This document shows, piece after piece, positions 33,587 to 64,000 of a stretch of 64,000 nt of DNA (position 1 is its first letter; every line of letters starts with the position of its first letter). The position numbers and the translations under genes are program-made. This DNA is from Dehalococcoidia bacterium (GTDB taxonomy: Bacteria > Chloroflexota > Dehalococcoidia > Lucifugimonadales > CATOSD01): positions 3,367,960-3,431,959 of the forward strand of contig CBDCJA010000002.1 of the NCBI GenBank assembly GCA_965217705.1, written 5' to 3'. The notes under the pieces are model-generated. The model worked only from the letters and a program-made list of their open reading frames with translations. It was not told the DNA's origin and ran no database searches.

Positions 33587-33625
33587 GCGGGACTGTCTCC
33601 ATCGGGGGGCCGTCCCGCTTTTTCA
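33587..33625 (+). terminator. Hairpin GCGGGAC/GTCCCGC followed by TTTTTC, immediately before the SD and start of the 4xHTH gene
   Basis: Read directly. The layout matches 32560..32660. Confidence 0.45.
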
Positions 33626-33642
33626 TTACAGGAGGAAGCGAC

Positions 33643-37470: not shown

Positions 37471-37590
37471 TCCGCACAAGCAGAAGTAGGTAGTGTCAGC
37501 ACTCCAATCGAATACGATTCTTCGCCGCCACTTCCTTCATGGCATGGTAAAATCACAGCCACCACCGATCCAGTTGAGAGGAGGCTGACC

Positions 37591-38298: not shown

Positions 38299-38404
38299 GC
38301 ACCCCACGTTGCTAGGCCAACCCGCCTACTGCGCAGCACAAATTCACGTGGCATCCTTCGATGCTGCGCTTCATCCCCCACTACCTACACATAACGACAC
38401 TGGA

Positions 38405-38438
38405 GAGCCGGATGCGGTGAAAGCCGCACGTCCGGTTC
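38405..38438 (+). ncRNA. Group II intron domain V
   Basis: GAGCCGGATGCGGTGAAAGCCGCACGTCCGGTTC is a 34-nt hairpin with the canonical GAGC...GTTC ends and a GAAA loop. Confidence 0.85.
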
Positions 38439-38501
38439 GGAGGGGGGCCGACGGAAAAGTGCTCCGGTAACACGGGGTAACTCGCCGGCGGCCTACCCTA
38501 C

Positions 38502-44517: not shown

Positions 44518-44766
44518 CACCCTCGCCGCCTCCGGCTCATACCGGCAGGCCCGATTCTCTCCCATCGCCGCTCCCTCTGAGCGCGCGCCCGAAGCCTTCA
44601 GTGTCCTCGAAGGACGCCTTGCGGCGGGCTTCGCACGTCCCGCACTCACCCGGAACAGCCTTCAACCATGCAACGCCACACGCCCTCCGCGCCGCTATCG
44701 GCTGACGCCTGCGGAGCGGACGGGCTGGCGTCCCATACCCCCGCACAAGCACAAGGAGGACTCATC

Positions 44767-47700: not shown

Positions 47701-50700
47701 TCGGAGGCCGACACGGACTTTCCCACCACCACCGCCACCACCGGCCGGGTCGACGTCGGGGCCTCGGTCACGGGCAACATCGGCGCCGTAGATGAAGAGG
47801 ACTGGTTCCGCGTCGACTTGGAGGCGGGCAAGATTTACCAGATCGACCTGGAGGGTTTGCCGACCGGCCGCGGCACCTTGGGAGACCCTTGGCTGGACAA
47901 CATCCGCGACTCATCCGGCACCGAGATTCTCGCCACCTCCAATGACGACATCGACGGGGACAATTTCAACAGCCAGATAACCTTCACGCCGACCGCGGCC
48001 GGCGCCTACTACCTGGTAGCAGCCGGGAATGGCGTTGCAGGCACCTACACGCTGTCGGTGCGTGACATCACGACGCCGTCCTGCACGCTGAACACGGGCG
48101 ACGTCTGGTGCGGCGTGGTGACGGTGGGGATGTTCACGTTGGACGGGACGAGCTATCTCGGTTACCTGGACGGTACGGGCGGCGGCGGCATGCTGTCGGA
48201 CAACGATTTCGATTTCACGGACACCGAACTGGACTCCAAGAGCCATACGATCACCGGCGTCCTGCTCGCTTCCGGGACGTTGAGTCTGATTTTCGAGGAC
48301 TCTCAGGACGAAGATGACAAGCCGGTTCTGGACACCTGGGACCTCCAGGTCGGCACCGACACGTTCGCGCTCGACGACGACGACGTCACCCAATTGCCGA
48401 CCGGCGGCTACCAGTGGACCGGCACCGGTCTGAGCTGGTCTGTGGGGGACACCGTCACGCTGCGGCTGCGGGGCGAGACCGGGCCGCCGTCGGTCGCCAA
48501 CGTGGCGGTCACGTCGATGCCGTTGCTGACCTCGTCGGGCGGATCGGAGCAGGACACCTACGGTGCGGGCGACGAGATCGAGTTCACGGTGACCTTCAGC
48601 CAGGTGGTCGTGGTCACGGGCGATCCGCAGTTCGGGTTCAGCCTGAGCGGGGCGCGCCAGGCCGACTACCGCTCGGGCAGCGGCAGCACGGCGCTGAAGT
48701 TCGTGTACACCGTGCAGTCCTCCGACTCGGACGACGACGGGATCTGGATCGGCAACCACAACTCCAACACCAAGTCGCTGCAGCTCGACGCCAACGACGA
48801 GATCACGAGCCCCGGGGGCATCGACGCCAATCTGGAACACGACCAGAAGCAGGTGCAGGCCGGTCACAAGGTGGACGGGTCGCTGTCGTCGAAGCCGACG
48901 CTCAGCATCGCGGACGCCGCGGCGGCCGAGGGCGACGACCTGTCGTTCACGGTGACGCTGTCGGCGGCGGCGGCGGCGGACGTGACGGCGACCTGGACGG
49001 CCTCGATCGAGACCGGCGACACGGCGGTCGCGGCGGACCTCGGAACGACGAGGACGGGGACGGTGACCGTCTCGATGGGTAACACGACGGGGACGATCAC
49101 GGTGGCGACCGTGGAGGACAGCACGGTCGAGGTGAACGAGACGTTCACGGTGACGCTGTCGGGCGTGTCGTCGAACGCGCAGCTGTCGTCGACCGCCGCG
49201 ACGGCCCAGGGCACGATCAACAACGACGACCTGGCGACGCTCTCGACGGACGCGACGCTGAGCGGGCTGTCGCTGGGCACGGGGGTGACGCTGAGCCCGG
49301 CCTTCGCCTCGGGCACGGACACCTACACGGCGTCGGTCGCCAACAGCGTCGACGAGGTGACGGTGACGCAGACGACGAACCACGCCAGCGCGACGGTCGA
49401 GATTCTAGACACGGACAACCTCGCGCTGACGGACGCGGACAGTACGGAGGACGGTTTCCAGGTCGCGCTGTCGGTGGGCTCGACCCAATTGGGCGTACTA
49501 GTGACGGCCGAGGACGGCACCACCACGAAGTTTTACACGGTGACCGTGACGCGCGACGACTTTCCCGCCGACACCACCACCACCGGCAAGGTCGACGTCG
49601 GCGGCTCGGTCACGGGCAACATCACCAGCGCATCGGATAGAGACTGGTTCCGCGTCGATCTGAAGAAGGACAAGCGATACCAGATCGACCTGGAGGGCGC
49701 GGGCACCAACCGGGGCACCCTGACAGACCCGACTCTCAACGCGATGCGCGATGCATCGAGCAATTCGATCTCGGGCACGGGGAACTCTGACAGCGGCGTG
49801 GGGATCAACGCCCGGACGATCTTCACGGCGCTCGCGGACGGCGCTCACTACGTAGTCGCCGCAGGGAACGGTGCGACGGGCACCTACACGCTGTCGGTGA
49901 TCGTGCTGGGCGCGAACGGCGCCTCGGAGGCGGACTTCGACTTTCCCGCCACCACCGCCACCTCCGGCCGCGTCGAGGTCGGGGCCTCGGCCACGGGCAA
50001 CATTAAAAACTTGGATGACGCTTATGACTGGTTCCGCGTCGATCTGGAGGCGGGCAAGACTTACCAGTATGACCTGGAGGGCGTGGATACCAGCCGCGGC
50101 ATGCTGGACGATCCGTACCTGGGGCTCTTCGACGGGTCCGGAACCTCCCTTTTCGACGACGACGACGACGGCACGGGCTTAAACAGCCGGATTACCCACA
50201 CACCTGCGACCGGCGGCACCTACTACCTGGGGGCGGCCCGTGCCGGCACCTCTGCCGGCACCTACACGCTGTCGGTGCGTGACATCACGCTGCCGACGCT
50301 GAGCGTCGCGGATGCCTCGGACGCCGAGAACGATGGGGAAGTGGAGTTCACGGTGACGCTGTCGGAAGCGGCCGCGACGGCCGTGACGGCGACCTGGACG
50401 GCGACGATCGAGACCGGCGACACGGCGGTCGCGGCGGACCTCGGGACGACGACGACGGGGACGGTGACCGTCGCGATCGGCGACACGATGGGAACGTTCG
50501 AGGTGCCGGTGGTGAACGACGCCACCGACGAGGGCGACGAGACCTTCACGGTGACGCTGTCGAACGTGTCGTCGAACGCGAAGCTGGAGACGGACCCGAC
50601 CGCGAAGGGAACCATCGAGGACGACGACGCGACGCTGCCGACGCTCAGCATCGCGGACGCCGCGGCGACCGAGGGCAGCAACGTGAGTTTCGCGGTGACG

Positions 50701-53700
50701 CTGTCGGCGGCGGCGGCGGCGGACGTGACGGCGACCTGGACGGCCTCGATCGAGACCGACGACACGGCGGTCGCGGCGGACCTCGGGGCGACGAAGACGG
50801 GGACGGTGACCGTCGCGATCGGCGACACGGACGCGACAATCACGGTGGCGACGGCGCCGGACACCACGGTCGAGGTGAACGAGACGTTCACGGTGACGCT
50901 GTCGGGCGTGTCGTCGAACGCGCAGCTGTCGTCGACCGCCGCGACGGCCCAGGGCACGATCAACAACGACGACCTGGCGACGGTGAGCGTCGCCGACGCC
51001 GAGGGCGACGAGGACGACGGCGTGGAGTTCACGCTGACGCTGTCGGCGGCGGCTCCGGCGGACGTGACCGTGGACTGGACGGCGTCGATCGAAAGCGGCG
51101 ACTCGGCGAGTACGGCGGATCTCGCGACGACGAAGACGGGGACGGTGACGATCACGAAGGGCGACACGACGAAGAAGTTCACGGTGCCGGTGAACGACGA
51201 CAGCACGGACGAGCCCGACCAGACCTTCACGGTGACGCTGTCGAACCCGACCCCGACGAGCCTCGCGCAACTGGCGGCGGACCCGACGGCCGAGGGCACG
51301 ATCGACGACGACGACGACCCGCCGACGATCAGCGTCGTGGACATGACGGTGATCGAGGGCGATCTGAACCCCGACAATGTCCCGACGTTTAATAACAATC
51401 CCGGCTTCCCGTGGACGGTGATGCTTTCGGAGGCGAGCGAGAAGCGGGTGCGGTACCGCAGCCGGCAAGTGGTGGACGGCACGGCGACGGACGCGGACCT
51501 GAAGGTAACCGTCGCTTTCTCCGGACGTCCTTCTATACAGGCAGGCCTTACGTCCGTAGTTCGTGGTGTGAACAACATCGTCAACGACGCCTTGGACGAG
51601 GACGACGAGACCTTCACGATCGAGGTCTATGACCTCGAAAACGCGACGGCGGGGGCGACGCGCTCGACCATCACCATCGTCGACGACGACCCGACGCCGA
51701 CGGTGACGGTGGCGGACGCGGCGGCGACCGAGGGCGACAAGGTGGAGTTCGTGGTGACGCTGTCGGCGGTGAGCGGACGCGACGTGGACGTGGACTACGC
51801 GACGTCGGTGGCGACCGGAGACGACGCCGTCTCGGACACGGACTTCACGGCGGCGAGCGGCACGCTGACCATCGCGGCGGCGGACAGTACCGCCACCGGG
51901 ACGATCGAGGTCCAGACGACGGAGGACGACGCGAGCGAGAGCGCCGAGACCTTCACGCTGACGATTTCAAGCCCGGATAACGCGACGCTGACCACGGACA
52001 CCACCGCGACGGGCACGATCAACAACCGGGCGACGACGGCGGCCGAGCCGACGACGTTCGCGGCGGCGGTGGGCGACGAGGAGGTCGTGCTGTCGTGGGA
52101 CGCGCCGGTTTCCGCTTCGGGCGTGACGCGCCACGAGTACCAGTACAAGGAGGGGACCGGGGCCTACAAGGGCTGGGTGCAGATCGCCAACAGCGGCGTG
52201 GACGGGGCGAACGAGGCCGGCTTCACGGTGACGGGCCTCACCAACGAGGTCCTCCACACCTTCCAGCTCCGCGCGGTGAACGCCCAGGGCGAGAGCACCG
52301 CGGCCGAGGCGGACGCGGTGACGCCGACGCCGGGCATCTGCGACCGGACGGCGAAGATCCAGGAGGTGATCCTGGCCGAGCTCGCGGACGTCAGCGAGTG
52401 CGCGGCGGTGACCGTGGCCGACCTGGCGTCGATCACGACGTTCGGGCTGAGCGCGCTCGGCACGTTCAACCAGGGGATCACCTCGCTCCAGGCGGGCGAT
52501 TTCGCGGGGCTGACGGCGCTGACGCAACTTAACCTGAGTCAAAACCAGCTCACGACGCTGCCCGAGGGGATCTTCTCCGGCCTGACCGCGGTTGAGGGAA
52601 TCAGCATGGAACAAAACCAGCTGACGGCGCTGCCCGAGGGGATGTTCGCGGGGCTTCCAAATCTGACATTGATCCTATTGACGGGTAACAGTCTCACCGC
52701 CATCCCGCCCCGGGCGTTCGCCGGCCTGACGGGGCTAACAAACATCAGTCTGGGCCTTAACGATCTGACTGCCCTGCCCGCCGGGCTGTTCACCGACCTG
52801 ACGACGCTGGAAAACATCAGTCTGGCCGATAACGACCTGACTGCCCTGCCGGCCGGGGTGTTCTCGGGCCTGACGGTGCTGGATACTCTCTATCTGGGTG
52901 GAAACGAATTGAGTTCGCTCGACGCCGGGGTGTTCTCCGGCCTGACGTCGCTGGAGCGCCTCGAACTGGATCGCAACGACCTGAGTTCGCTCCCCGCCGG
53001 GGTGTTCTCCGGCTTGGCGGCGTTGACACGCCTCAATCTGGACGACAACGATCTGAGTTCGCTCCCCGACGGCCTGCTCTCCGGCCTGACGGGGCTGACA
53101 CGGCTCCAGCTGTTCGACAACCCCAACTCCGGCGATACGCTGGCGCTGACCGTGACGGTGGAGAAGTTCGGGACCGACCAGGCGCGGGCGAAGGTGCTGG
53201 CGGGGGCGCCGTTCGCGGTGAACTTCACGGCGACGGTGGTGAACGGTTCGCTCCCGACGGGCGTCACGAAGCTTGCCGTGGCGGCGGGCTCGGTGGAGGG
53301 CACGGCGGTCACCGTGACCCGCACGTCCGGGACGATGGCGGCGGTGACGGTGGACATCGACCTGACCACCCAGCCGACCCTGCCCGAGTTCCACAGGGGC
53401 TACGAGTTCGTGAAGGCGACCTCGGGCCTGCCGGCGGAGATCCTGCCGGACACCAGGGGCCCCCAGAATTTCACCGCCAAGCCGGGCGACGGGCAGGCCG
53501 TGCTGTCGTGGACCGCGCCGGCGTCGGGTTCCGGCGTGACGAAACACCAGTACCGCCAGAAGGAGGGGACCGGGAGCTATCCCGCGAACTGGACTGACAT
53601 CCCCAACAGCGCGGAGGGCGAGGCGAACGAGGACGGCTACACGGTGCCGGGCCTCACCAACGAGACGGTATACACCTTCGAGCTCAAGCGGTTCGTCGGC

Positions 53701-56700
53701 ACGACCGAGAGCGCGACGGCGGAGTCGAACGCGGTGACGCCGACGCCCGGCATCTGCGACCGCACGCAGCAGGTGCAGGACGGCATCCTGGCCGGGCTCG
53801 CGGACGTCAGCGACTGCGCGGCGGTGACCGTCGCCGACCTGGAGAGTTTCACGGCCTCCCTGGAGTTTGCGGGTGAGGACATCGCGTCGCTGAAGTCGGG
53901 CGACTTCGCGGGGCTGTCGAACCTGGATGTCCTGGAACTTTCCAGAAACACCTTCACCACGCTTCCCGCGAACGTGTTCTCCGGCCTGACGTCGCTGACA
54001 AGCCTGAAGGTGTCAAACGGCGAGCTGAGTTCGATCGACGCCCGGGCGTTCTCCGGGCTAACGGCGCTGGAAGTACTCAAACTGGATACCAACGACCTGG
54101 ATTCGCTCCCCGGGACCGTGTTCTCCGGTCTGACGACGCTGATAACCCTCGAGCTGAACGGTAACGACCTGGCCTCGCTTCCCGGGACCGTGTTCAATGG
54201 CCTGTCGGCGCTGCATACTCTTCATCTGCAGAGCAACGATCTGGAAACGCTCCCCGCCGGGCTGTTCTCCGGCCTGTCGGCGCTGTCAACCCTCACACTG
54301 GCCGATAACGATCTGACTGCGATCCCCGCCCAGGTGTTCTCCGGCCTGTCGGCGCTGGAAATCCTCAATCTGAGCGACAACGACCTGAACTCGCTCGACG
54401 CCGGGGTGTTCTCCGGCCTGAGCAATCTGCGATCCCTGTCGCTGCGAAACAACCAACTGAGTGCGCTCCCCGACGGGCTGTTCTCCGGCCTAACGGCGCT
54501 GACTGGTCTCAATCTGAGCGACAACACCACCAACCCCATGCCGCTCACGGTGACGGTGGAGAAGTTCGGGACCGACCAGGCGCGGGCGAAGGTGCTCGCG
54601 GGGGCGCCGTTCGCGGTGGAGTTCACGGCGACGGTGGTGGACGGTTCGCTCCCGACGGGCGTCACGAAGCTTGCCGTGGCGAAGGGCTCGGCGGAGGGCA
54701 CGGCGGTCACCGTGACCCGCACGACCGGGACGATGGAGGCGGTGACGGTGGACATCGACCTGAGCACCCAGCCGTCCCTGCCCGACAAGCACGAGGGCTA
54801 CACCTTCGCCCGGGCCTCGGACCTGCCGGCGGAAATCCTGCCGGCGGAGGCGTCGCTGGAGCCGCCGACCGGCCTCAGCGCCACGCCCGGCGACCGGCTG
54901 GCGGTTCTCACCTGGACCCCGCCGGCGTCGGATTCGGGCTTCACGCGCCACCAGTACCGCTACGGGACGGACGGAGACTTCGTGGACTGGACGGATATCC
55001 CCGACAGCGGGCCGGGCGAAGCGAACGGGTCGCGGTACACGGTGACGGGGCTCGACAACGCGGTTGAGTACAGCTTCGAGCTGCGCGCGCGGGACGCGGG
55101 CGCCGGTAGGAGCCACGCGGCGACGGTGGCGGTGACGCCGGAGGGTCCGCCGCGGATCCTCTCGGTCGAGGTGACCTCGGTTCCGGTCCTGGACAACGAG
55201 ACCACCTACGGCGCGGGCGAGGAGGTCGATATCTCGGTGACCTTCGACCAGCCGGTGGTGGTCGAGGGCGCCCCGCAGCTCGTGCTCGACGTGGACGGAT
55301 CGCGCCTGGCGGAGTACCACGAGGGCAGCGGCAGCAACACGCTGGTGTTCGCCTACGTGGTGACGGAGAGCGACCGAGATACCGACGGCGTCTCGGTCGG
55401 CGACAACGCGCTCCGGCTGGACGGCGGCGACGTCATCCGCAACGGCGCGGGCGACAACGCCGAGCTGCCCCACGACGGGCCGGGCCAGCAGTCCGGCCAC
55501 CGGGTGGACGGCGAGCGGCGGGCTGGCGTGCACGATCACGGCGAGTTCACCCACTCGCATTCGCATTTCAGGCAACAGTATCCCGAGCACACGCACGAGG
55601 GCCACGAGCACGCCGACGATGCCAACGGCCACAAGCGCCGGCCCGGGACGCACGTGCACCACGCGCAGGAGGAGCCGAATGCGTCAATCTCCGGCGGCCC
55701 CGACGTCAGGACGCACGACGGGGTAGAGCACATTCACCGGTGCTTCGACCTGAAACCCTCGTGCAACCAGGGCGACGACTACGCCGAGCGGGGCGACGAG
55801 CTGGGGCTGCCGATCGAGGTGACCCATTCCCACGAGCACTCCGAGCCGGGCCACCGCTTCGACTGGCGGGCGTTCTTCGAGGAAGGCGGGTCCGGCGCGA
55901 CGGTGTCGGTGGCGGACGCGGTGGCGATGCGAGGCGAGGGCCGCACGCTGGACTTCGAGGTGAGCCTGGAGCCGGCGGTGGCGTTCGCGGTGCGGGTGGA
56001 CTACGCGACGGTGGACGGCACGGCGACCGCGGGCGAGGACTACCTGGGGACGTCGGGCGTGCTGGAGATCCCGCCCGGGCAGACGCGCGCGACGGTGTCG
56101 GTGCGGATGCCGGCGGACGGGCCGGGGGACGGCCCGGAACTGTTCGAACTGAGGCTGAGCTCCGCCACGGCGGCGACGGTGGCGGACGGCGAGGCGACGG
56201 GCACGATCCTGACGCCGGGGCCGTCGACGCCGCCGGTGATCGAGAGGATCGCGGTGGCCTCGACGCCGCGGCTGAGCTCGGACGGCAACACGAACAGGGA
56301 CACCTACGGCGAGGGTGAGACGATCCGCATCGAGGTGCGGTTCGACCAGCCGGTGGTGGTGGTGGGCGACCCGACGTTCGCGCTCGAGGTGGGTGACCCG
56401 TGCGAGTCGGTGTGCGAGGCCGACTACGAGTCGGGGAGCGGCGCGGACACGCTGGTGTTCGCGTACCTGGTGCTGGAGGTCGACGTCGACCGCAACGGCA
56501 TCGCGATCCGCGGCAACCCGATCGAGGTGGTGCTCGGCGACAGCATCCGCAACGCGGCGGGCCAGGAGGCGCGCCTTTCCTCCAAGGGGAAGGGCACGCA
56601 GCGCAACCACAAGGTGGACGGGTCGCGGTCGGCGGCGGCGCACCTGTCGGTGGCGAACGCCGAGGCGCGCGAGGCCGACGGCGAGATGACGTTCACCGTG

Positions 56701-59700
56701 CGTCTGGAACCGCACGGGCTGGGCATCGTGACGGTCGACTACGCGACGCGCGACGGCTCGGCGCGGGCGGGCGAGGACTACACGGAGACGGGCGGCAGGC
56801 TGAGGTTCAATTCGCTGGAGACGGAGCGGACGGTGACGGTGCCGATCACGGACGACACCGAGCCGGACGACGGCGAGACGTTCACGCTTACGCTGTCGAA
56901 CCCGGACGGCGCGCAGCTCAGGGACGGCGACGGCGAGGCCACGGGCACGATCCACAACAGCGAGCCGCAGGAGGCGCTGACGGCGTCCTTCGAGGACGTG
57001 CCGGCGGCACACGACGGCGCCGCGTTCCGGTTCCGGGTGGCGTTCAGCGAGGACATCGGCATCAGCTTCCAGGCGCTGCGCGAGGACGCGTTCGCGGTGA
57101 CGAACGGGCGGATCACGGACGGGGTGCCCGTGGACGACCGCCGCGACCTGTTCGATATGACGCTGGAGCCGGACGGCGACGGCGACGTGGCGGTCACGCT
57201 TGAGGCGGACCGCGACTGCGCGGAGTCCGGGGCGATCTGCACGAAGGGCGAGCCGCAGCGGCGGCTGACGACCACGGTGTCGGCGATGGTGGCCGGCCCG
57301 GACGGCGCGGCGAACGCCCCGGCCACGGGCGCGCCGGCCATCATCGGCACGGTCCAGGTGGGCGAGACGCTGACGGCGGACACCTCTGGCATCGCCGACG
57401 CCAACGGACTGACCAACGTTTCTTACAACTACCAATGGCTTGCCGACGACGCGGACATCGCCGGCGCCACCGGCTACAGATACACCCTGGCCGATAGCGA
57501 CGAGGGCAGGACCATCAGGGTAAGGGTGACCTTCACCGACGACGCGGGCAACGAGGAGTCGCTGACCAGCGCACCCACGGAGCCGGTGTTGGAGGAGCCG
57601 GTGTTTGGGGACGGCCCGCCGGGAGCGCCGCGCAACCTCACCGTCACCGCCGGAGACCAGGAGGTCACCCTGTCCTGGGAGCCGCCAGCCGACAACGGCA
57701 ACGCGCCCGCGACGAGATACCGCATCGAGTGGAGGATAGACGGCAAGGACTACAAAAAGGGGCATTGGGGCCCATCGGGAGAGACTACCTATACGAAGAC
57801 CGACCTGGCCAATGGAGTGAAGTACATCTTCCGGGTAAAGGCCGAGAACGGCAACGGCAACAGCTACGGACCATACGGACCGGCCTCCGAGGAGGTGAGC
57901 GCCACTCCCACGTCCGGCTTGGCGGTGGACCTGGGCACGCCGGTGCTGTCGAACACGAAGACCCTGCATCACGGCATGGTGCAGCTGGACTGGGAGGACG
58001 TAGAGGACGCCGGTTGGTATGTAGTCCAGTACTACCATGTCAAAGGTGGGGAGTGGCTGGACCTGCCCGCCGCCGGAGTGGACATCGCGTTCCACGGTTC
58101 GAGCGCGGTGGTGAGCAACGTGCATGGGCTCTCGTGGCTGAGGGTTCGAGCGATGAGCTGTGCGGGAGAATCGGAGTGGTCGCAGATCGAGGAGTTGTAC
58201 GGGACCAATGCATCGGACTGGGAGGGAGTGCCCGTACCCGAGGTGGCGGAGGGCGACGAGATCGAGCCATGCCCCGTGGTCCTGGGCACGCCGGTGCTTT
58301 CGAACACGGAGACCCTGCATCACGGCATGGTGAGGCTGGACTGGGAGGACATTGAGGACGCCGGTTGGTACGTGGTCCAGTACTACCACGCCAAAGGTGG
58401 GGAGTGGTTGGACCTGCCCGCCGAGGGAGTGGACATCGCGTTCCACGGTTCGAGCGCGGTGGTGAGCAACCTGCATGGGCTCTCGTGGCTGAGGGTTCGA
58501 GCGATGAGCTGTGCAGGAGCATCGGAGTGGTCGCAGATCGAGGAGTTGTACGGGACCAATGCATCGGACTGGGAGGGCGTGCCCGTACCGGAGGTGGCGG
58601 AGGGCGACGAGATCGAACCGTGCTCCGAAGACGGTGACACGACGGACAACAGTCCGGCGACTGGAGCGCCCACAATCAGCGGGACGGCGCAGGTGGGCGA
58701 GACGCTGTCGGCGGACAAGTCAGGAATCGCCGACGCCGACGGCCTAACGAACGCCACCCACAGATACCAGTGGCTTGCGGACGACGCTGCAATCGCGGGC
58801 GCTACCGGCTCGACCTACACCCTGGCGGACACCGACGAGGGCAAGGCCATCACGGTGCAGGTGAGCTTCACCGACGACGCGGGCAATGATGAGACTCTGA
58901 CCAGTGAGGCCACGGACGCAGTGGCGGCAGCGCCTGCTGCCAACAACCCAGCCACCGGCGCTCCCACGATCAGTGGCACGGCCCAGGTGGGCGAGACGCT
59001 GACGGCGGACAGGTCGGGGATCGCCGACGCCGACGGGCTTAGCAACGTCCAGTACGAGTACCAGTGGCTTGCCGACGACACAGCGATTCAGGGCGCCACG
59101 GACGCCACCCACACCCTGGCGAACACCGACGAGGGCAAGGCCATCAAGGTGCAGGTGAGCTTCACCGACGACGCGGGCAATAATGAGGCGCTGACCAGTG
59201 CGGCTACGGGCGCGGTGTCGGCGGCGGAACCTACGGAGCCGCCCGCCAGACCCACCGGCCTCTCGGCCACGGCGTCGCACGACTCTGTGACCCTCACGTG
59301 GGACGACCCCGGCGACGACTCCATCACCGGCTACGTGATCCTGCGGCGCGTCCGCGTGAACAATACCGGGGGCGACTTCAGTGAACTGGTGGCGGACACG
59401 GGCACAGCGGCGACCACCTACACCGACGACACGGTGGCTGCCGGCACCACTTACACCTACCGGATCAAGGCCATCAACGGGGCCGGAACGAGTGAACGCT
59501 CGCGCTGGTTCCACATCGACACTCCGGCAGCGCCCGTACCCGATAAGCCCACGGGCTTGTCCGCCACGGCGTCCCACGACTCGGTGACCCTCACCTGGGA
59601 AGACCCCGGCGACGATAGCATCACCGGCTACGTGATCCTGCGGCGCCTCCGCTACGACGACCCCTCGGGCCACTTCGATGAGCTGGTGGCGGACACGGGC

Positions 59701-59835
59701 ACGGCGGCGACCACGTACACCGACGATACGGTAAAGGCCAACACTCACTATACCTACCGGATCAAGGCCATCAGCGGGGCCGGGGTGAGCGAGCGTTCCC
59801 GCTGGTTCCACATCCAGACCCAGGAGGCCCCGTAG
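44767..59835 (+). CDS. Giant (5,022 aa) secreted mosaic surface/adhesin-like protein
   Basis: AAGGAGGA SD. Signal peptide MTNINRRRFPILLASALALLAILGALLLPITAQA. By eye: cadherin-like beta-sandwich repeats, pre-peptidase C-terminal (PPC)-type repeats, Calx-beta repeats, FN3 domains, two leucine-rich-repeat blocks, a His-rich segment, and YQWL...GAT..Y.L...D.G-type beta repeats. The listed ORF starts 33 codons earlier, at 44668. Confidence 0.9.
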   Translation: MTNINRRRFPILLASALALLAILGALLLPITAQAQTVTTLVSNIGQTTNAFALLDVLDGDQALSITTGGTTSDSHTIESLEIKVDEYERVGSTGTVSLYSDNSGVPGSSIFTFTNPTGGIVSESVNTFTAPDNTTLTGGTTYHIVVSGEAPAGATGPNFDLEVTTSNDQDDAGEDDWEIGDSGHSLSGTTWSSSTYVMQIRVNGSAVGGETPTLSTDATLSGLSLGTGVTLSPAFASGTDTYTASVANSVDEVTVTPTTNHASATVEILDTDDNELNDSDDVEDDFQVALEVGDTVIKVKVTAEDGTSTQTYTVTVTRAAEMTPDDSGNVSEGDTDLPGDTTTTGKVEVGGSVTGKIRNLNDKDWFAVELEAGKRYQIDMEGADTGRGTLTHPRVSGIYDAAANAIANTANNGGGVGNNARVIYTPDAAGTYYVEAYFQTGELNRTYTLSVILLGANGASEADTDFPATTATTGRVEVGSKVEASVTGNIESATDEDWFRVDLEAGKTYQIDMKGEYGGGGTLEDPYLNNIRDSSSNEIEGTFNDDIDPDNNLNSQITFTPTAGGTYYLLVGAASSTTGTYTLSVREIPPSCTLNTGDVWCGVVTVGEYKSGGITFAYGFVDATTDTGALSDTTFDVSPNSYTIDRASVGVSGLAGQLIFSLTSALTEPDRAKLVLHVDGSSGSFAFDGVTPTASFGYRWAMSGLDWSSETSVTLRLRDTPPLSTDATLSGLSLGTGVTLSPAFASGTDTYTASVANSVDEVTVTPTTNHASATVEILDTDDNELDDADDVEDDFQVALSVGDTVIKVKVTAEDGTSTQTYTVTVTRAADMTPDDPPDDSGNVSEGDTDLPGDTTTTGKVEVGGSVTGTIADTIDDLSSGDSFKVDLEAGKRYQIDVEGAPTGRGTLPDPWLASIVDPDGNQVQGAGDNDSGVGLNARLILTPTEDGAHDVNVRAYFVPSAQPGTYTLSVILLGANGASEADTDFPTTTATTGRVDVGASVTGNIGAVDEEDWFRVDLEAGKIYQIDLEGLPTGRGTLGDPWLDNIRDSSGTEILATSNDDIDGDNFNSQITFTPTAAGAYYLVAAGNGVAGTYTLSVRDITTPSCTLNTGDVWCGVVTVGMFTLDGTSYLGYLDGTGGGGMLSDNDFDFTDTELDSKSHTITGVLLASGTLSLIFEDSQDEDDKPVLDTWDLQVGTDTFALDDDDVTQLPTGGYQWTGTGLSWSVGDTVTLRLRGETGPPSVANVAVTSMPLLTSSGGSEQDTYGAGDEIEFTVTFSQVVVVTGDPQFGFSLSGARQADYRSGSGSTALKFVYTVQSSDSDDDGIWIGNHNSNTKSLQLDANDEITSPGGIDANLEHDQKQVQAGHKVDGSLSSKPTLSIADAAAAEGDDLSFTVTLSAAAAADVTATWTASIETGDTAVAADLGTTRTGTVTVSMGNTTGTITVATVEDSTVEVNETFTVTLSGVSSNAQLSSTAATAQGTINNDDLATLSTDATLSGLSLGTGVTLSPAFASGTDTYTASVANSVDEVTVTQTTNHASATVEILDTDNLALTDADSTEDGFQVALSVGSTQLGVLVTAEDGTTTKFYTVTVTRDDFPADTTTTGKVDVGGSVTGNITSASDRDWFRVDLKKDKRYQIDLEGAGTNRGTLTDPTLNAMRDASSNSISGTGNSDSGVGINARTIFTALADGAHYVVAAGNGATGTYTLSVIVLGANGASEADFDFPATTATSGRVEVGASATGNIKNLDDAYDWFRVDLEAGKTYQYDLEGVDTSRGMLDDPYLGLFDGSGTSLFDDDDDGTGLNSRITHTPATGGTYYLGAARAGTSAGTYTLSVRDITLPTLSVADASDAENDGEVEFTVTLSEAAATAVTATWTATIETGDTAVAADLGTTTTGTVTVAIGDTMGTFEVPVVNDATDEGDETFTVTLSNVSSNAKLETDPTAKGTIEDDDATLPTLSIADAAATEGSNVSFAVTLSAAAAADVTATWTASIETDDTAVAADLGATKTGTVTVAIGDTDATITVATAPDTTVEVNETFTVTLSGVSSNAQLSSTAATAQGTINNDDLATVSVADAEGDEDDGVEFTLTLSAAAPADVTVDWTASIESGDSASTADLATTKTGTVTITKGDTTKKFTVPVNDDSTDEPDQTFTVTLSNPTPTSLAQLAADPTAEGTIDDDDDPPTISVVDMTVIEGDLNPDNVPTFNNNPGFPWTVMLSEASEKRVRYRSRQVVDGTATDADLKVTVAFSGRPSIQAGLTSVVRGVNNIVNDALDEDDETFTIEVYDLENATAGATRSTITIVDDDPTPTVTVADAAATEGDKVEFVVTLSAVSGRDVDVDYATSVATGDDAVSDTDFTAASGTLTIAAADSTATGTIEVQTTEDDASESAETFTLTISSPDNATLTTDTTATGTINNRATTAAEPTTFAAAVGDEEVVLSWDAPVSASGVTRHEYQYKEGTGAYKGWVQIANSGVDGANEAGFTVTGLTNEVLHTFQLRAVNAQGESTAAEADAVTPTPGICDRTAKIQEVILAELADVSECAAVTVADLASITTFGLSALGTFNQGITSLQAGDFAGLTALTQLNLSQNQLTTLPEGIFSGLTAVEGISMEQNQLTALPEGMFAGLPNLTLILLTGNSLTAIPPRAFAGLTGLTNISLGLNDLTALPAGLFTDLTTLENISLADNDLTALPAGVFSGLTVLDTLYLGGNELSSLDAGVFSGLTSLERLELDRNDLSSLPAGVFSGLAALTRLNLDDNDLSSLPDGLLSGLTGLTRLQLFDNPNSGDTLALTVTVEKFGTDQARAKVLAGAPFAVNFTATVVNGSLPTGVTKLAVAAGSVEGTAVTVTRTSGTMAAVTVDIDLTTQPTLPEFHRGYEFVKATSGLPAEILPDTRGPQNFTAKPGDGQAVLSWTAPASGSGVTKHQYRQKEGTGSYPANWTDIPNSAEGEANEDGYTVPGLTNETVYTFELKRFVGTTESATAESNAVTPTPGICDRTQQVQDGILAGLADVSDCAAVTVADLESFTASLEFAGEDIASLKSGDFAGLSNLDVLELSRNTFTTLPANVFSGLTSLTSLKVSNGELSSIDARAFSGLTALEVLKLDTNDLDSLPGTVFSGLTTLITLELNGNDLASLPGTVFNGLSALHTLHLQSNDLETLPAGLFSGLSALSTLTLADNDLTAIPAQVFSGLSALEILNLSDNDLNSLDAGVFSGLSNLRSLSLRNNQLSALPDGLFSGLTALTGLNLSDNTTNPMPLTVTVEKFGTDQARAKVLAGAPFAVEFTATVVDGSLPTGVTKLAVAKGSAEGTAVTVTRTTGTMEAVTVDIDLSTQPSLPDKHEGYTFARASDLPAEILPAEASLEPPTGLSATPGDRLAVLTWTPPASDSGFTRHQYRYGTDGDFVDWTDIPDSGPGEANGSRYTVTGLDNAVEYSFELRARDAGAGRSHAATVAVTPEGPPRILSVEVTSVPVLDNETTYGAGEEVDISVTFDQPVVVEGAPQLVLDVDGSRLAEYHEGSGSNTLVFAYVVTESDRDTDGVSVGDNALRLDGGDVIRNGAGDNAELPHDGPGQQSGHRVDGERRAGVHDHGEFTHSHSHFRQQYPEHTHEGHEHADDANGHKRRPGTHVHHAQEEPNASISGGPDVRTHDGVEHIHRCFDLKPSCNQGDDYAERGDELGLPIEVTHSHEHSEPGHRFDWRAFFEEGGSGATVSVADAVAMRGEGRTLDFEVSLEPAVAFAVRVDYATVDGTATAGEDYLGTSGVLEIPPGQTRATVSVRMPADGPGDGPELFELRLSSATAATVADGEATGTILTPGPSTPPVIERIAVASTPRLSSDGNTNRDTYGEGETIRIEVRFDQPVVVVGDPTFALEVGDPCESVCEADYESGSGADTLVFAYLVLEVDVDRNGIAIRGNPIEVVLGDSIRNAAGQEARLSSKGKGTQRNHKVDGSRSAAAHLSVANAEAREADGEMTFTVRLEPHGLGIVTVDYATRDGSARAGEDYTETGGRLRFNSLETERTVTVPITDDTEPDDGETFTLTLSNPDGAQLRDGDGEATGTIHNSEPQEALTASFEDVPAAHDGAAFRFRVAFSEDIGISFQALREDAFAVTNGRITDGVPVDDRRDLFDMTLEPDGDGDVAVTLEADRDCAESGAICTKGEPQRRLTTTVSAMVAGPDGAANAPATGAPAIIGTVQVGETLTADTSGIADANGLTNVSYNYQWLADDADIAGATGYRYTLADSDEGRTIRVRVTFTDDAGNEESLTSAPTEPVLEEPVFGDGPPGAPRNLTVTAGDQEVTLSWEPPADNGNAPATRYRIEWRIDGKDYKKGHWGPSGETTYTKTDLANGVKYIFRVKAENGNGNSYGPYGPASEEVSATPTSGLAVDLGTPVLSNTKTLHHGMVQLDWEDVEDAGWYVVQYYHVKGGEWLDLPAAGVDIAFHGSSAVVSNVHGLSWLRVRAMSCAGESEWSQIEELYGTNASDWEGVPVPEVAEGDEIEPCPVVLGTPVLSNTETLHHGMVRLDWEDIEDAGWYVVQYYHAKGGEWLDLPAEGVDIAFHGSSAVVSNLHGLSWLRVRAMSCAGASEWSQIEELYGTNASDWEGVPVPEVAEGDEIEPCSEDGDTTDNSPATGAPTISGTAQVGETLSADKSGIADADGLTNATHRYQWLADDAAIAGATGSTYTLADTDEGKAITVQVSFTDDAGNDETLTSEATDAVAAAPAANNPATGAPTISGTAQVGETLTADRSGIADADGLSNVQYEYQWLADDTAIQGATDATHTLANTDEGKAIKVQVSFTDDAGNNEALTSAATGAVSAAEPTEPPARPTGLSATASHDSVTLTWDDPGDDSITGYVILRRVRVNNTGGDFSELVADTGTAATTYTDDTVAAGTTYTYRIKAINGAGTSERSRWFHIDTPAAPVPDKPTGLSATASHDSVTLTWEDPGDDSITGYVILRRLRYDDPSGHFDELVADTGTAATTYTDDTVKANTHYTYRIKAISGAGVSERSRWFHIQTQEAP
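45406..45719 (+). repeat. Near-identical ~315-nt intragenic repeat (cadherin-like unit), copy 1 of 3; the others are at 46933-47248 and 49240-49553
   Basis: CTCTCGACGGACGCGACGCTGAGCGGGCTGTCGCTGGGCACGGGGGTGACGCTGAGCCCGGCCTTCGCCTCGGGCACGGACACCTACAC... recurs almost base for base. Confidence 0.9.
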
Positions 59836-60463: not shown

Positions 60464-60784
60464 GGCGGCCGCCACCGCAGGGGCTGAAACGCAACGAGGG
60501 CGGCGTACGCGGACGACGCCGCGGCGCGCATGGCGATGGGCTGCTCCCGCGAGGGGCAGGTGGAGCACGGAGGCGGCCGGGCGCTGAATCGGCGGCGCGG
60601 CCGCGCCGCCGCCCGCACGTGAGCGTCGAGCTTGCGCCCCCGCCTGCCCTGCTCCGATGATTTCGGGCAACAAAAAAAGCCCGCACACATGGGAAGCCGG
60701 GGGAGGCCGTCGTCGATACGGCGACAACCTCCCCCCTTGAGTAACGGCCCGGCGGTACTACGCCGGGCCGTCGCCTGTGCCTCG

Positions 60785-61888
60785 CTAGGCGGCGGCCATC
60801 TCCGGCTGCTTCAGCATGGCGGAGTAGCCCCTCTCGACGACGTGGGTCACCGACAACCGGCCATGACCGTCGTACCCCGCGCGGTAGGCGAACTCCGCCT
60901 TCGCGCCCCAGGGCACGTGGCCGCCGACCCGGACGGCGGGGCCTCCAGACCTGCCGCGGCGCCCCGGCCCGCCCGCGCCGTGCACCACCATCCCGCTCCG
61001 CTCGCCCTTCCGCCAGCCCAGCACCTTCACCTCGGCGGGCATGACCCGCTCCGCCTTCGTCGGCTGGAACAGGACACCGTGCAGCCCCTTCAGCACGCCC
61101 GCCGACGGGGAGGACTTGCCGTTCATGATCTGGGAGAGGTACGAGGAGCTGATGCCCGCTCGCCGGGCGGTCTCGTTCTGGCTGAAGCCGTGAGCGTCCA
61201 TCCGGTCCCACATCGCCTCCCGGTCGATGCTGGCGGGCTGCGCGGGAGCGATCTTCACCGGGGCCTCCAGCGCCGACGCGACCCTGGCCTGGACCTTCAC
61301 GCCCATGTTGCTATGACCCCGTGCCACCATTGACATGTAGCCGTAGGAGACGCCCACGCGGTCGGCCAGGTCCCGCAGGTTCATGCCCAGCTCCCTGGCC
61401 CGCTCCCGGATGTAGCTGCTCTCCCCGGCCACGACGACGCCTTGGCGGTGGGCGCACGTGGCGGGCGCGACCTTCGCCGGACCGTGCAACGCCGACTCGA
61501 CCCTGGTCTGGACCTTCACGCCCATGTTCTGGCGGCCACGGGCAACCTGGGTCATGTAGCTGTAGGAGACGCCCACCTCATCGGCCAGGTCCTTCATGGT
61601 CATGCCCAACGTGCGGGCGCGCTCCCGGATGAAGCTGCTCTCGCCGGTCACGACGCCGCCCTGGCGGTAGACGATGCCCTGGCCGGGGACTTCTCCCAGG
61701 ACCGCCGCGACCTTCTCCCGCATCTTGGGCGTCCACGGACTGCCCCCGTTGGCGATCCGCGACAGGTAACTCGCGCCCACGCCCATCAGGGCCGCGAGTT
61801 CCTTCATGGTGAGCCCGCGCCGCCTGGCCGCAGCCCTGAGCTCGCTCTCCGCCGTCCTCGTTCCGGTTGCCATCGTTGCCGTCGTCAT
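60785..61888 (-). CDS. Protein with four tandem XRE-type HTH domains, copy 2
   Basis: MTTATMATGTRTAESELRAAARRRGLTMKELAALMGVGASYLSRIANG... is colinear with 33643..34758. Confidence 0.8.
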   Translation of the reverse strand: MTTATMATGTRTAESELRAAARRRGLTMKELAALMGVGASYLSRIANGGSPWTPKMREKVAAVLGEVPGQGIVYRQGGVVTGESSFIRERARTLGMTMKDLADEVGVSYSYMTQVARGRQNMGVKVQTRVESALHGPAKVAPATCAHRQGVVVAGESSYIRERARELGMNLRDLADRVGVSYGYMSMVARGHSNMGVKVQARVASALEAPVKIAPAQPASIDREAMWDRMDAHGFSQNETARRAGISSSYLSQIMNGKSSPSAGVLKGLHGVLFQPTKAERVMPAEVKVLGWRKGERSGMVVHGAGGPGRRGRSGGPAVRVGGHVPWGAKAEFAYRAGYDGHGRLSVTHVVERGYSAMLKQPEMAAA

Positions 61889-62180
61889 CGGTCCGTCCTC
61901 CTTCTGTTGTGTTGTGTTGCCTTTGGCCTGCGCCCGCTTGCGGGCAAAGAAGAAGGGCCGCCCCCGGCGAACGAGGACGACCCTTGTGAATGGGGATGTG
62001 TTGTGAGAACCGGAGGCCCCGCCGTCAGCGGCGATGGACCTCGTTGACGTGCATAGACGCCTCCTTTCAGTTGTTGACCCGTGCAGGCATCCGTGGCGCG
62101 GGTACTTCGTGATGGGGTTGACGCTGGACGCACTCCGCCCACGGTCGGATGCCGGACGCGAGAGACGGAGTGGGAGTGAG

Positions 62181-62480
62181 AGAAGACGCAGCCCGGCCCA
62201 GGGTGATTCGCCGGGAAATCGACTGCCGGGGAGCTGCTACGGGGGAAGCGACCGTCCTACGACTTCATCGCAGGACGGCGCAGGTGAAGAAGGCGCGGCT
62301 CGCCCAGGGTGCGTAGCGTCAGAGTTGGGGGAAGCTGCGAGAGGTGAAGCGGCCGGCCCACGACGTGGCCGCAGACCGACGCATGACAGAAGACGCAGCT
62401 CGGCCCAGGGTGAACAACGTCAGTGGGAGAACTGCGAGACGTGAAGCGGCCAGCCTGCTTTCAACGGCAGACCGGCGCAT
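62181..62480. repeat. Three tandem ~102-105-bp non-coding repeats
   Basis: AGAAGACGCAGCYCGGCCCAGGGTGA-type heads at 62181, 62286 (degenerate) and 62388, each followed by CTGCGAGA(G/C)GTGAAGCGGCC-like tails. Confidence 0.6.
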
Positions 62481-62612
62481 GTCGAAGCTGCGGCCCGGCT
62501 GCGTGTCAGCCGTGCCGCGGGCATGAGGAGTCGGCGGAGCGACAGACGCACTCCGACCGACTTGTGGAGGACGAAGCACAAGGCGCGCTCCGTCCCAGTT
62601 GTCCAGCGGCGA

Positions 62613-62930
62613 GAGCGATCGACTCCCAACGCCAGCCCTGAGTCCAACGAATGGAGCGATCAACTCCGATTCGCCAGACCAATGCCCAGCGAGTGAAGCG
62701 ATCAACCCCAACCGGCAGACTGGTTCCCAACGGCAGGAGCGATCAACTCCAATCGCTGAACGGGTGTCCAGCGGGCGAAGGGCTTATCACTCCAACCGCC
62801 GGACTGGACCGAGGACGGAGAGCTACGTCAAATCCGTCGTTTCGATCCGTGCTGCCTGCGAAGGACCAACGTCAACTCCGCTTCAGCAGCATTCCCTCGT
62901 GGGCAACCGGGGGAGAGCGAATCATCCTCC
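62613..62930. repeat. Iteron-like array: about 8 direct copies of AGCGATCAACTCC-like boxes with 41-47 bp phasing
   Basis: Boxes start near 62614, 62655, 62697, 62738, 62781, 62824, 62868 and 62915. The spacers are not conserved. Confidence 0.6.
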
Positions 62931-63110
62931 AGTCGGACCCGTGCAACAGGGATCGCGCACCCAGGTTTCTATGGTCGGAAACCTTGGTCAAAAGCCAAAC
63001 AGTGCAGTCATTGTCGCCGTTCCCGGCGCCGCAAAAGAGGGCCTGCAAGACCCCCCCGGCAGATTGCCGCCAAATCGTTCACTAAAGTTCACAACGAACC
63101 CGCCGCCCGG

Positions 63111-63929
63111 CTACCGCCACAGCAGACCGAGGGTCAGACGCCGCAGAAGCTCCCGCTTGCGCCGCGCTCTCCGCGTGTCGTAGAGCGCGGTCCTGCGCCA
63201 GCTGGTCTGCTCGTCCCGCTCGAAGCCCCGCAGCGGGTACGTCTCCGGGGGCAGCGTCATGCCGTGCTCTTCGAGCAGAGCCAGCTCCACCGTCAACAGC
63301 CGCTCCTGGGTCGCCAGCCACTCAAGGCCCCCGCCCCGGTTGGGGTGCGCGGCCTTCAACTCCCGCCACTCGACGATGAGGGGCCAGGCGTTCCCGAACA
63401 CGTCCGCGTCGTCGTCGGCAGGCTCGATGGTCACCAGGTCGGGAAACTCCCGCCTGACCGGGGACCCCCGCTTCGCCTGCGCTCCAGCTCCCGGCGCGGC
63501 CCCGTCCCGAGCGGCCCGGCCCGACTCCAGCTGCGCCAGCCGCCGCCCCATCTGGGCCTGCTCGTCCCCCAGCGCCTTCACGTCGCCCCGGACCGCCGAG
63601 AGGCCCTTGCTCGTGTCCCTGCCCAGCGCGTCCACCCGGCCCTCGACCTCCGTCACCCGCCCATCGAGGCTGTCGTTGCGCTCCCTCTGCTCGGCCGCCG
63701 GCGAGCCCTCCCCCTCCAGAAGCGCCTTCTCCAACACGCTGCGCATCCGCCTGGACAGCCTGCCCCGCTCCATGCTGGCGGTGAGGGTCTTGTAGTCCAC
63801 CCCCAACAGCTGCGTCGCCTTCATCACTCCCTTGTCCCGCACCAGCTCGTTCAGCAGCGCCATCAGCCGCATGTGCTGCATGTCCTGGACGCTCCTGCTC
63901 TTCTCGAACACCGGCTTTCCCGTATTCAT
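63111..63929 (-). CDS. HTH plus coiled-coil protein, module copy 2
   Basis: HMRLMALLNELVRDKGVMKATQLLGVDYKTL... and WPLIVEWRELK...LEEHGMTLPPETYPL are colinear with 30497..31372. Confidence 0.7.
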   Translation of the reverse strand: MNTGKPVFEKSRSVQDMQHMRLMALLNELVRDKGVMKATQLLGVDYKTLTASMERGRLSRRMRSVLEKALLEGEGSPAAEQRERNDSLDGRVTEVEGRVDALGRDTSKGLSAVRGDVKALGDEQAQMGRRLAQLESGRAARDGAAPGAGAQAKRGSPVRREFPDLVTIEPADDDADVFGNAWPLIVEWRELKAAHPNRGGGLEWLATQERLLTVELALLEEHGMTLPPETYPLRGFERDEQTSWRRTALYDTRRARRKRELLRRLTLGLLWR

Positions 63930-64000
63930 CGGTCACTCCTCCTCTCTCAAGGCCTCCAAGTTTCCAACGGGGCCAGTCCAAGTCCAGTCCTGCCTCCAGA

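Follow-up and report, generated by a model that had tools for sequence, protein, structure and literature searches.

Repeats and hairpins beside a regulatory gene are known in several forms: the antitoxin RNAs of type III toxin-antitoxin (TA) modules, the sponge RNAs of the Csr/Rsm type, the boxB hairpins of N-type antitermination, the leader-peptide attenuators and leader controls of conjugative plasmids, and the iterons and parC/parS-type arrays of plasmids. Large conserved structured RNAs are rare in bacteria. Here we analyzed a 64,000-nt stretch of a Dehalococcoidia bacterium (contig CBDCJA010000002.1, assembly GCA_965217705.1; hereafter the window), whose DNA is G+C-rich (about 65-70%). 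In it, a 1.2-kb gap at 61889-63110 sits between two minus-strand genes, of which the upstream one encodes a protein with a helix-turn-helix (HTH) domain and a coiled coil and the downstream one a protein with four tandem HTH domains (the 4xHTH protein). The original prediction, made on the letters of the window, had taken the gap for an array of phased DNA boxes, a candidate iteron or multi-site operator. Our best reading, which draws on comparative sequence analysis and predicted folding, is that the gap encodes a putative non-coding RNA of ~1.06 kb on the minus strand, running from a -10-like box at ~63010 to a terminator at ~61945 and predicted to form a string of roughly 20 back-to-back local hairpins. 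The two arrays are then best read as tandem duplications of hairpin modules, namely eight single hairpins of ~41 nt and three two-hairpin modules of ~101 nt. We consider a strand-specific structured RNA with a cis-regulatory role to be the functional form with a probability of roughly 0.6; it would serve the 4xHTH gene as a long leader or else stop at the terminator as a non-coding RNA in its own right.

The comparison with described systems brings out likeness and difference in each case. Type III antitoxin RNAs (ToxI, CptI, TenpI) resemble the locus in their promoter, tandem direct repeats of ~35-45 nt, variable copy number, terminator before the next gene and carriage on mobile elements; the shared repeat-terminator-gene layout is that described for type III TA systems (PMC8860590). 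Their repeats form pseudoknots, whereas the units here are plain hairpins, and here a second array, single-copy hairpins and a leader open reading frame (ORF) stand between the repeats and the terminator. Sponge RNAs of the CsrB/RsmY/RsmZ (and CrcZ) type also carry repeated hairpins that all show the same short motif, a likeness which suggests multivalent binding or titration of one protein. However, the loops here show UUGAUCG (or UUGACGUUGG) where sponge RNAs show GGA or a CA-rich sequence, GGA/GGG (as GGAG/GGGG) sits in the stem, and no CsrB or RsmX/Y/Z family in Rfam matches. The putative RNA also has about three times their length and continues into a leader ORF, a terminator and a downstream gene.

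The N-type antiterminators with the boxB hairpins of the lambda and P22 nut sites, together with put/EAR and pLS20 conAn, share with the locus a hairpin of 5-bp stem and 5-nt loop upstream of a terminator, a neighboring gene whose protein has a conserved arginine-rich helix, and the setting of a regulatory switch on a mobile element. The comparison is one of resemblance only. The differences are that at least eight copies occur here instead of one, that the loop is UGAUC instead of GNRA-like, and that the candidate partner is a 272-aa HTH/coiled-coil protein whose arginine-rich helix is C-terminal. We identified no boxA, though no search aimed at boxA or Nus elements was made. Leader-peptide attenuators, like the prgQ/Anti-Q control of pCF10 and the leader controls of pAD1 in Gram-positive bacteria, place a short leader ORF and then an intrinsic terminator before the regulated gene, and the two plasmid systems also belong to a conjugation control region. 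In the present case ~900 nt of repeated hairpins precede the attenuator, and no antisense RNA partner was found. At the leader we identified no regulatory codons and no alternative antiterminator pairing, the latter without a systematic search for alternative pairing. Plasmid iterons and parC/parS-type arrays offer regular direct boxes, copy-number variation and adjacent genes for DNA-binding proteins, but at this locus the spacers base-pair, the signal appears on one strand and needs G·U pairs, and there is no adjacent Rep or Par gene. Overall, the locus lacks at least one defining feature of sponge RNAs, of type III antitoxin RNAs and of N/boxB sites, and with attenuators it has the layout feature only in common.

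Periodic predicted hairpins in a conserved non-coding gap

The gap belongs to a regulatory module, module 2, which has a paralogous counterpart, module 1, at 30455-34758 on the plus strand. The two repeat arrays that had been noticed between the two regulator-like genes of module 2 were borne out by autocorrelation: the stretch 62590-62935 peaked at lags 41 (z 5.2) and 83 (z 5.5), and 62170-62500 peaked at lag 101 (z 5.5), against a 95th percentile of shuffle maxima of ~3.4. The three tandem units placed at 62181-62480 were recovered by a hidden Markov model search at 62178-62480, with lengths of 96, 100 and 106 nt (62385-62480, 62285-62384 and 62178-62283), and Tandem Repeats Finder reported the ~101-nt array at 62245-62455 (2.1 copies, 76% identity). 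For the boxes, of which about eight at regular spacing had been proposed, we found eight units of ~41 nt. Five of them, at 62599-62805, are strong and match a covariance model with 39-55 bits, solely on the minus strand; three further 5' (62806-62952) are degenerate. The spacing is mostly 41-43 nt, with a last interval of ~52 nt, and the 8-mer TTGATCGC is nearly invariant across the units.

The claim that the region is ORF-free also held. Mechanical ORFs of 130-194 aa overlap the region and could be taken for a translated repeat protein, but none of them passes the filter on G+C at third codon positions (GC3) except a run-on of the HTH frame. Of 506 indel events between orthologues, only 8.7% have a length divisible by 3. 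Substitutions in the gap show no 3-base periodicity, each of the six frames contains 4-10 stops, and neither unit length (41 or 101 nt) is divisible by 3. The scarcity of in-frame indels, the lack of codon periodicity and the stops refute the repeat-protein reading.

The structure of the units emerged from their spacers. These had been described as not conserved, which is right for a comparison between units of one array but wrong for orthologous loci, where column identity is ~0.8-0.97. The 3' half of a spacer is complementary to the 5' half of the spacer that follows, across the intervening box, so that each unit takes the form of a hairpin tipped by its box. A 41-nt unit consists of a basal stem of 7-9 bp (the former spacers), a small internal loop and an apical stem-loop (the former box). 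The apical part of the five 3' units reads GGAGU-UGAUC-GCUCC, a loop of 5 nt on a stem of 5 bp; that of the 5' units reads GGAG-UUGACGUUGGUC-CUUC or similar. For an alignment of 33 loci (the window plus 32 related loci), RNAalifold predicted a row of hairpins on the minus strand of 62585-62945, with 73 pairs and -96.3 kcal/mol. In this alignment of the array (A1), 98.1% of 2335 cells are paired, and both partners change in 10 pairs, a count reached by 0 of 500 shuffles; slid controls were 37-53% paired. The 65 distinct 41-nt units aligned to each other (A3) gave the same two-stem hairpin, with 95.9% of cells paired and 28 cells changed on both sides (11.8 in shuffles, none of 500 reaching 28).

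Each 101-nt unit folds into two hairpins, P1 with 12-13 bp and P2 with an imperfect stem that is closed by GCAGY...RGCUGC and bears the conserved CACCCUGGGC. After every unit there is a pyrimidine tract, GUCUUCU. In the alignment of 69 such units (A2), 97.2% of cells are paired and 28 are changed on both sides, compared with 14 in shuffles (0 of 500 reach 28). Slid controls across the alignments were 33-58% paired. The linker hairpins between the two arrays contain 7 pairs with compensatory change according to RNAalifold. Locally folded from 63010 to 61945, the whole strand resolves into 23 consecutive stem-loop domains almost without unpaired linker, although two of these are trivial 3-bp closures of positive energy.

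The gap as a whole aligns at full length with the 32 other loci at ~74-94% identity. Within the putative RNA (63005-61950) these loci share a mean identity of 0.864 with the window; third codon positions in the HTH gene reach 0.823, and in 29 of the 32 loci it is the gap that has diverged less. Most of these loci have just ~50% identity in the upstream protein. Poor alignment is confined to stretches where the copy number of units differs. The 41-nt arrays fall into length classes of 278, 320, 361 and 402 nt, that is, steps of ~41 nt between loci, and hold 5-9 units per locus; the ~101-nt units number 85 in the 33 loci, with 2-4 per locus. As separate observations on gap length, locus L049 carries an insertion sequence (IS) element between its 41-nt hairpin array and its 101-nt units (4205-5340), with a 333-aa ORF on the opposite strand whose product is putatively a DDE transposase by its appearance, and four other loci (L072, L022, L002 and L074) also have long gaps and retain the array.

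We then compared the two strands, with dinucleotide shuffles as controls for the folding z-scores. The 41-nt array region (62585-62945) gave z -5.07 on the minus strand, where 0 of 100 shuffles were as good, and -0.56 on the plus strand. Under DNA parameters the minus strand gave -0.52, no more stable than shuffles because ~20-27% of the pairs are G·U or G·T. The region 62170-62600 gave -4.85 and -0.84 on the minus and plus strands with RNA parameters, and the 3' part (61890-62180) gave -2.11 and -0.02. The coding sequences of the two flanking genes, on the same minus strand, gave +2.15 and +0.42; neither the genome nor the strand as such therefore accounts for the folding signal. RNAalifold energies agree: the array has -80.6 (minus strand) and -37.7 (plus strand), the linker hairpins have -48.2 and -24.8. 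The intergenic region of module 1 gave -1.79 in the sense and +2.71 in the antisense direction. A covariance model of the 41-nt hairpin (R1) matched five times in the window, at 62599-62805 on the minus strand, with nothing else above 15 bits; in 80 related loci, all 143 of its 143 matches lie on the gene strand and between the two genes. The structured RNA that the original prediction had listed as needing a check is thus what strand-specific folding and covariation point to.

Both ends of the putative RNA carry recognizable signals (Table 1). Just upstream of its presumed start lies a terminator-like hairpin whose GCAGGCCCCTCT is invariant in the 33-locus alignment, with a T-run in about two thirds of the loci; the consensus terminator scan did not flag this element (63033-63055). 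In the same interval, directly after the stop of the upstream gene, there is a direct repeat GTGAAC-N5-GTGAAC with 11 bp from start to start (63077-63093, minus strand). Relatives retain AACTTTWGTGAAC of it, and it is a possible duplex-DNA operator near the putative promoter. At the other end, a Shine-Dalgarno sequence and ATG of the leader ORF are present in 31 of the 33 loci and a 9-codon peptide of the form MH/RV-x-EVH-R/H-R in 26; longer or shorter variants occur in a few loci. The last codons and the stop of this ORF lie inside a hairpin (62042-62013, -19.3 kcal/mol), the stop in its loop, ~40 nt upstream of the intrinsic terminator. The terminator stem changes in a compensatory manner between loci (CCUCG/CGGGG, CUCCA/CGGAG, UCCC/GGGA) and its U-tract is invariant. 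The ribosome-binding site and start codon of the 4xHTH gene follow at a distance of ~55-65 nt.

Module 1 carries a counterpart of this arrangement. A GATAAT box precedes the region at ~31445, a homologue of the first (5') hairpin follows at ~31455-31500, one copy of the 101-nt unit lies at 31823-31936, and the same segment of terminator and ribosome-binding site is found at 32538-32659. The two module-1 boxes GGATCGAGCAYCGCGCTCTCC reported at 31537 and 31587 are present at these positions. Two extra small ORFs without family lie in the module-1 gap, at 32069-32356 (95 aa) and 32647-33114 (155 aa). The latter is inserted ahead of the module-1 HTH gene and has acquired what in module 2 belongs to the HTH gene, namely the conserved leader of terminator and ribosome-binding site and the initial codons (MTTA..).

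Table 1. Positions of the features discussed, in window coordinates
Feature	Position	Strand	Remarks
Upstream gene (HTH/coiled-coil protein)	63111..63929	minus	272 aa; GC3 0.93; the 'coiled-coil' protein of the original prediction
Terminator-like hairpin	63033..63055	minus	G+C hairpin, then UCUUUU; directly 3' of the upstream gene's stop; partly conserved
-10-like box, candidate promoter of the structured RNA	63010..63015	minus	GACAAT in the window; GATAAT or GATACT in relatives
First (5') hairpin	62956..63006	minus	CCAAGGUUUC...GAAACCUGGG; -14.3 kcal/mol; column identity 0.85-0.94
41-nt array, eight hairpins	62599..62952	minus	RNAalifold, covariance model, z-scores
Units of the 41-nt array	62893-62952, 62850-62891, 62806-62848, 62764-62805, 62723-62762, 62682-62721, 62640-62680, 62599-62638		
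Three single-copy conserved linker hairpins	62487..62604	minus	Local folds of -19 to -22 kcal/mol each
101-nt array, three tandem units	62178..62480	minus	Individual folds of -35 to -48 kcal/mol
Single hairpin	62131..62172	minus	CACUCCG...CGGAGUG; -21.4 kcal/mol; column identity 0.90-0.98
Shine-Dalgarno sequence	62067-62060	minus	AAAGGAGG
9-codon leader ORF	62054-62025	minus	MHVNEVHRR*
Intrinsic terminator	61943..61985	minus	14-bp G+C stem and CUUCUUCUUU tail; flagged by the terminator scan (61985-61953)
Downstream gene (4xHTH)	60785..61888	minus	Four tandem XRE-type HTH domains and a C-terminal extension of ~100 aa
Large serine recombinase	7456-9138		Module 1
DUF4143 ATPase	10064-11368		Module 1, cargo
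AbiEii-like AAA ATPase	16003-17553		Module 1, cargo
DUF3800 protein	18032-18892		Module 1, cargo
Replic_Relax protein	18820-20490		Module 1; relaxase-like
TrwB-like coupling protein	20487-23288		Module 1
VirB4/TraC-like ATPase	23735-25990		Module 1
TrbL/VirB6-like protein	28548-29510		Module 1; followed by the divergent regulator module
Reverse transcriptase/maturase/HNH ORF	35662-37470		Of the group II intron
Rfam Intron_gpII match	38403-38501		67.5 bits

Competing explanations of the array

Several observations weigh against a structured RNA and have to be set beside the evidence above. Most of the structural variation consists of transitions via G·U, and in A2 and A3 the number of pairs with a double change is not above that of shuffles (169 and 175 of 500 shuffles reach it, respectively). 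Because the loci are related, the shuffle tests are inflated. Among non-Watson-Crick cells G·U outnumbers A·C by 449 to 14, a ratio that is partly circular because the prediction method allows G·U and forbids A·C. The region of the 101-nt array (62170-62600) is still significant under DNA parameters, with z -3.07. As for the start of the RNA, no convincing -35 box was found near 63010 and the consensus sigma-70 promoter scan was empty, which leaves the -10-like hexamer as the sole mark of the promoter; hence the start point is inferred. The apical loop UGAUC does not resemble the GNRA-like loop of boxB, and the boxes are also exact DNA repeats, so a protein could bind them in duplex DNA as well, although none of our observations calls for such binding. 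More generally, transcription, the promoter, control of read-through and the identity of a binding partner are all inferred from sequence.

The rival that stays closest to the original prediction is a duplex-DNA iteron or multi-site operator, in which the 4xHTH protein, the upstream HTH protein or both would bind boxes phased at about four helical turns, for repression, partition or control of replication. The exact and periodic repetition of TTGATCGC, the HTH proteins encoded on both flanks, the location in the regulatory region of a conjugative element and a copy number as variable as in iteron arrays all speak for it. Nevertheless, we regard it as unlikely. Its spacers should be free to phase the boxes, but constraint extends beyond the boxes: the spacers are conserved and pair across them, with compensatory and G·U-mediated changes, in 96-98% of cells. 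Folding and R1 matches are confined to one strand, which would be unexpected for duplex sites, and the unit is not a sequence palindrome. Boxes ~140 Å apart on B-form DNA would presumably also be beyond the reach of the ~18-residue linkers between HTH domains unless the DNA bends, and our search of the plasmid collection turned up no similar array. A strand-specific signal in a conjugative element, beside the operon of its type IV secretion system (T4SS), would suit hairpins of single-stranded DNA on the transferred strand, as an auxiliary structure of oriT, a single-strand origin or primosome site, or an Frpo-like promoter. The stability of the 101-nt array region under DNA parameters fits such hairpins, while that of the 41-nt array as DNA (z -0.52) does not; moreover, the Shine-Dalgarno sequence, leader ORF and U-tract terminator on the same strand indicate RNA, and the Replic_Relax gene is ~11 kb away from the homologous module-1 region. 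Known single-strand promoters are long single hairpins, unlike eight small ones in tandem. We judge this rival quite improbable.

A layout of promoter, ~41-nt tandem RNA repeats, terminator and gene, on the kind of mobile element where TA modules are frequent, recalls a type III TA system, whose repeats would form an antitoxin RNA precursor that is cut to unit-length RNAs neutralizing the protein of the gene after the terminator. That gene, however, encodes the 4xHTH regulator, for which Pfam and PADLOC returned only HTH-type matches, and not an endoribonuclease of the ToxN/CptN/TenpN/AbiF type. In addition, ~650 nt of other conserved structure, including the leader ORF, separate the 41-nt array from the terminator, and the units are simple hairpins, so that there is very little to be said for a TA module. 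The chances are similarly slim that the arrays are functionless tandem duplications in a recently spread mobile element, their conservation due to recent ancestry and their hairpins to chance in G+C-rich DNA. Multi-copy mobile elements within one bacterial class, an IS element inside the region in L049 and the variable copy number would all be expected under this explanation. It does not account for a divergence that in 29 of 32 loci is slower than that of the HTH gene at third codon positions and is far slower than that of the upstream protein, for z-scores near -5 where the coding neighbors are at ~0 or above and the opposite strand at -0.6 to -0.8, or for pairing that is kept in 96-98% of cells despite substitutions.

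Other candidates were tried and dropped. A CsrA-type reading with GGA in the loop disagrees with the many units that have GGGG and with covariation in support of GGAG/CUCC pairing. A GUCAAC complementarity of loops and leader was abandoned since the leader motifs are not conserved. A search of the window for an antisense target of the loop, as TTGATCGC or its complement elsewhere, yielded only two isolated matches, compatible with chance. A CRISPR array was rejected as the whole period is 41 nt and the 'spacers' are conserved between genomes and mutually paired; no cas genes occur among the genes scanned.

Flanking proteins and the conjugative element

The upstream protein is, from sequence and a structure model, our candidate for the binding partner of the hairpins, and the best one. 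Its AlphaFold2 model, confident for residues 14-71 and 174-271, begins with a Cro/cII-like HTH, continues through a coiled coil and closes with a helical C-terminal domain, whose last helix is rich in arginine (DTRRARRKRELLRR). A Foldseek search of the PDB gave no significant match (weak ones of the N-terminal domain to XRE, lambda cII and N15 Cro, at E of at least 1), no Pfam, NCBIfam or PADLOC family was assigned, and the 1702 homologues are unnamed. Neither flanking protein has a toxin, nuclease or known RNA-binding domain according to PADLOC, NCBIfam and Pfam. The TRR residues of the helix are invariant among close homologues. Across the window (63111-63170, minus strand) and loci L001-L080, the helix motif occurs in the classes DTRRA.., DTRVALRKRK, DTRWARTRRE, EVRRAVAWRR and KRVRAERNR. 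In a comparison of 76 loci, three classes go with hairpin types of their own downstream: DTRRA..KRELL accompanies arrays with UUGAUCG loops, with L027 as the sole exception, EVRRAVAWRR accompanies two GGAUCGAGCAYCGCGCUCUCC hairpins, as in module 1, and KRVRAERNR accompanies two GGAUUGAGCCUYGCUCUCC hairpins. Since the gene adjoins the hairpins, physical linkage alone could produce this pattern, which thus serves as a lead.

The 4xHTH protein appears repressor-like (TrbA/XRE-like) by sequence. It matches Pfam HTH_3 at 2.9e-30. Among NCBIfam families it comes closest to TrbA, a regulator of conjugal transfer, with a score of 87 bits, which is under the cut-off of 96. It has at least 2007 homologues. 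All 80 of the 80 related loci from reference genomes belong to metagenome-assembled genomes of Dehalococcoidia (Chloroflexota), often with several copies per genome. Both 4xHTH genes of the window contain a 219-nt tandem repeat (~80% identity, 1.9 copies; 61242-61668 and 33889-34298), which arises because the 73-aa HTH domain is duplicated.

In module 1 and in the near-identical locus L001, the regulator module faces a T4SS operon divergently, whose genes encode a TrbL/VirB6-like protein, a VirB4/TraC-like protein, a coupling protein and a Replic_Relax protein. This arrangement implies that the gap belongs to the regulatory module of an integrative conjugative element. The region of module 1 at 7456-34758 looks like a fairly complete element of this kind (Table 1).

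The surroundings yielded further observations. A group II intron (35662-38501) lies directly 3' of the HTH gene in module 1. The stretch 2914-6090, close to the element's left end, encodes a 1058-aa N6-adenine methyltransferase of the Eco57I/MmeI type, as is typical for type IIG restriction-modification enzymes. GATC occurs in the hairpin loops. A single ORF of 5055 aa (44668-59835) is convergent on module 2. Inside it, R1 gave three identical weak matches of 13.5 bits each (45422, 46949 and 49256), which point to internal sequence repeats in that ORF.

Proposed mechanism and significance

We propose that the RNA would act in cis as a leader that sets transcription read-through past the terminator into the repressor-like gene. 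The nearly invariant loops, in 5-9 copies, look like multivalent recognition sites, and the leader ORF together with the terminator suggests regulated read-through into the repressor-like gene as the output. The repeated identical loops may then be multivalent docking sites for a sequence-specific RNA-binding factor, which would either modify or antiterminate RNA polymerase, as phage lambda N does at boxB, or be titrated as by a CsrB-like sponge. This factor could be the upstream protein, through its conserved arginine-rich C-terminal helix.

Taken to its full extent, the proposal is of an undescribed class of modular regulatory RNA of ~1 kb in conjugative elements of Dehalococcoidia/Chloroflexota. 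Its array would recruit, or be titrated by, the HTH/coiled-coil protein via the arginine-rich helix and thereby set terminator read-through into the transfer repressor gene, and three specificity classes of hairpin and protein would serve as immunity or incompatibility groups between elements resident in one cell: UUGAUCG with DTRRA, GGAUCGAGCAYCGCGCUCUCC with EVRRAVAWRR, and GGAUUGAGCCUYGCUCUCC with KRVRAERNR. In this complete form it is a tentative idea with the odds against it.

Searches of databases and the literature returned no description of the element. Rfam 15, applied to the whole window at gathering thresholds, matched the group II intron at 38403-38501 only; on the region itself at E up to 5 it assigned no family, the best being CC2171 with 24.9 bits against a threshold of 75. 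A BLAST search of the plasmid collection with 60700-64000 in distant mode gave no match, and literature searches found no account of this element. The pattern GTTGATCGC-N30-34-TTGATCGC is too weak to be diagnostic, as its matches in viral and metagenome contigs, among those listed, were chance matches; R1 found no genuine hairpin in the 80 metagenome loci with pattern matches, a screen that covered metagenome and not viral loci.

In its size, its build as a string of hairpins and its two arrays of variable copy number, the element is unusual for a structured cis-regulatory or non-coding RNA of a mobile element. There is also a practical lesson for annotation: phased boxes with 'non-conserved spacers' can be tandem hairpins, and the complementarity of spacers should be checked before iterons are called. 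The hairpin-repeat build offers experimental handles in the number of units, the loop sequence and read-through at the terminator. To our knowledge, almost nothing is known about the regulation of conjugative elements in Chloroflexota, a major uncultured group of soil and subsurface. The family is abundant there: it comprises at least 2000 homologous regulator genes, and a genome carries several of the elements. Should the array turn out to be a leader that binds protein multivalently, the control of horizontal gene transfer would gain an RNA layer, which could explain how several related elements coexist in one genome.

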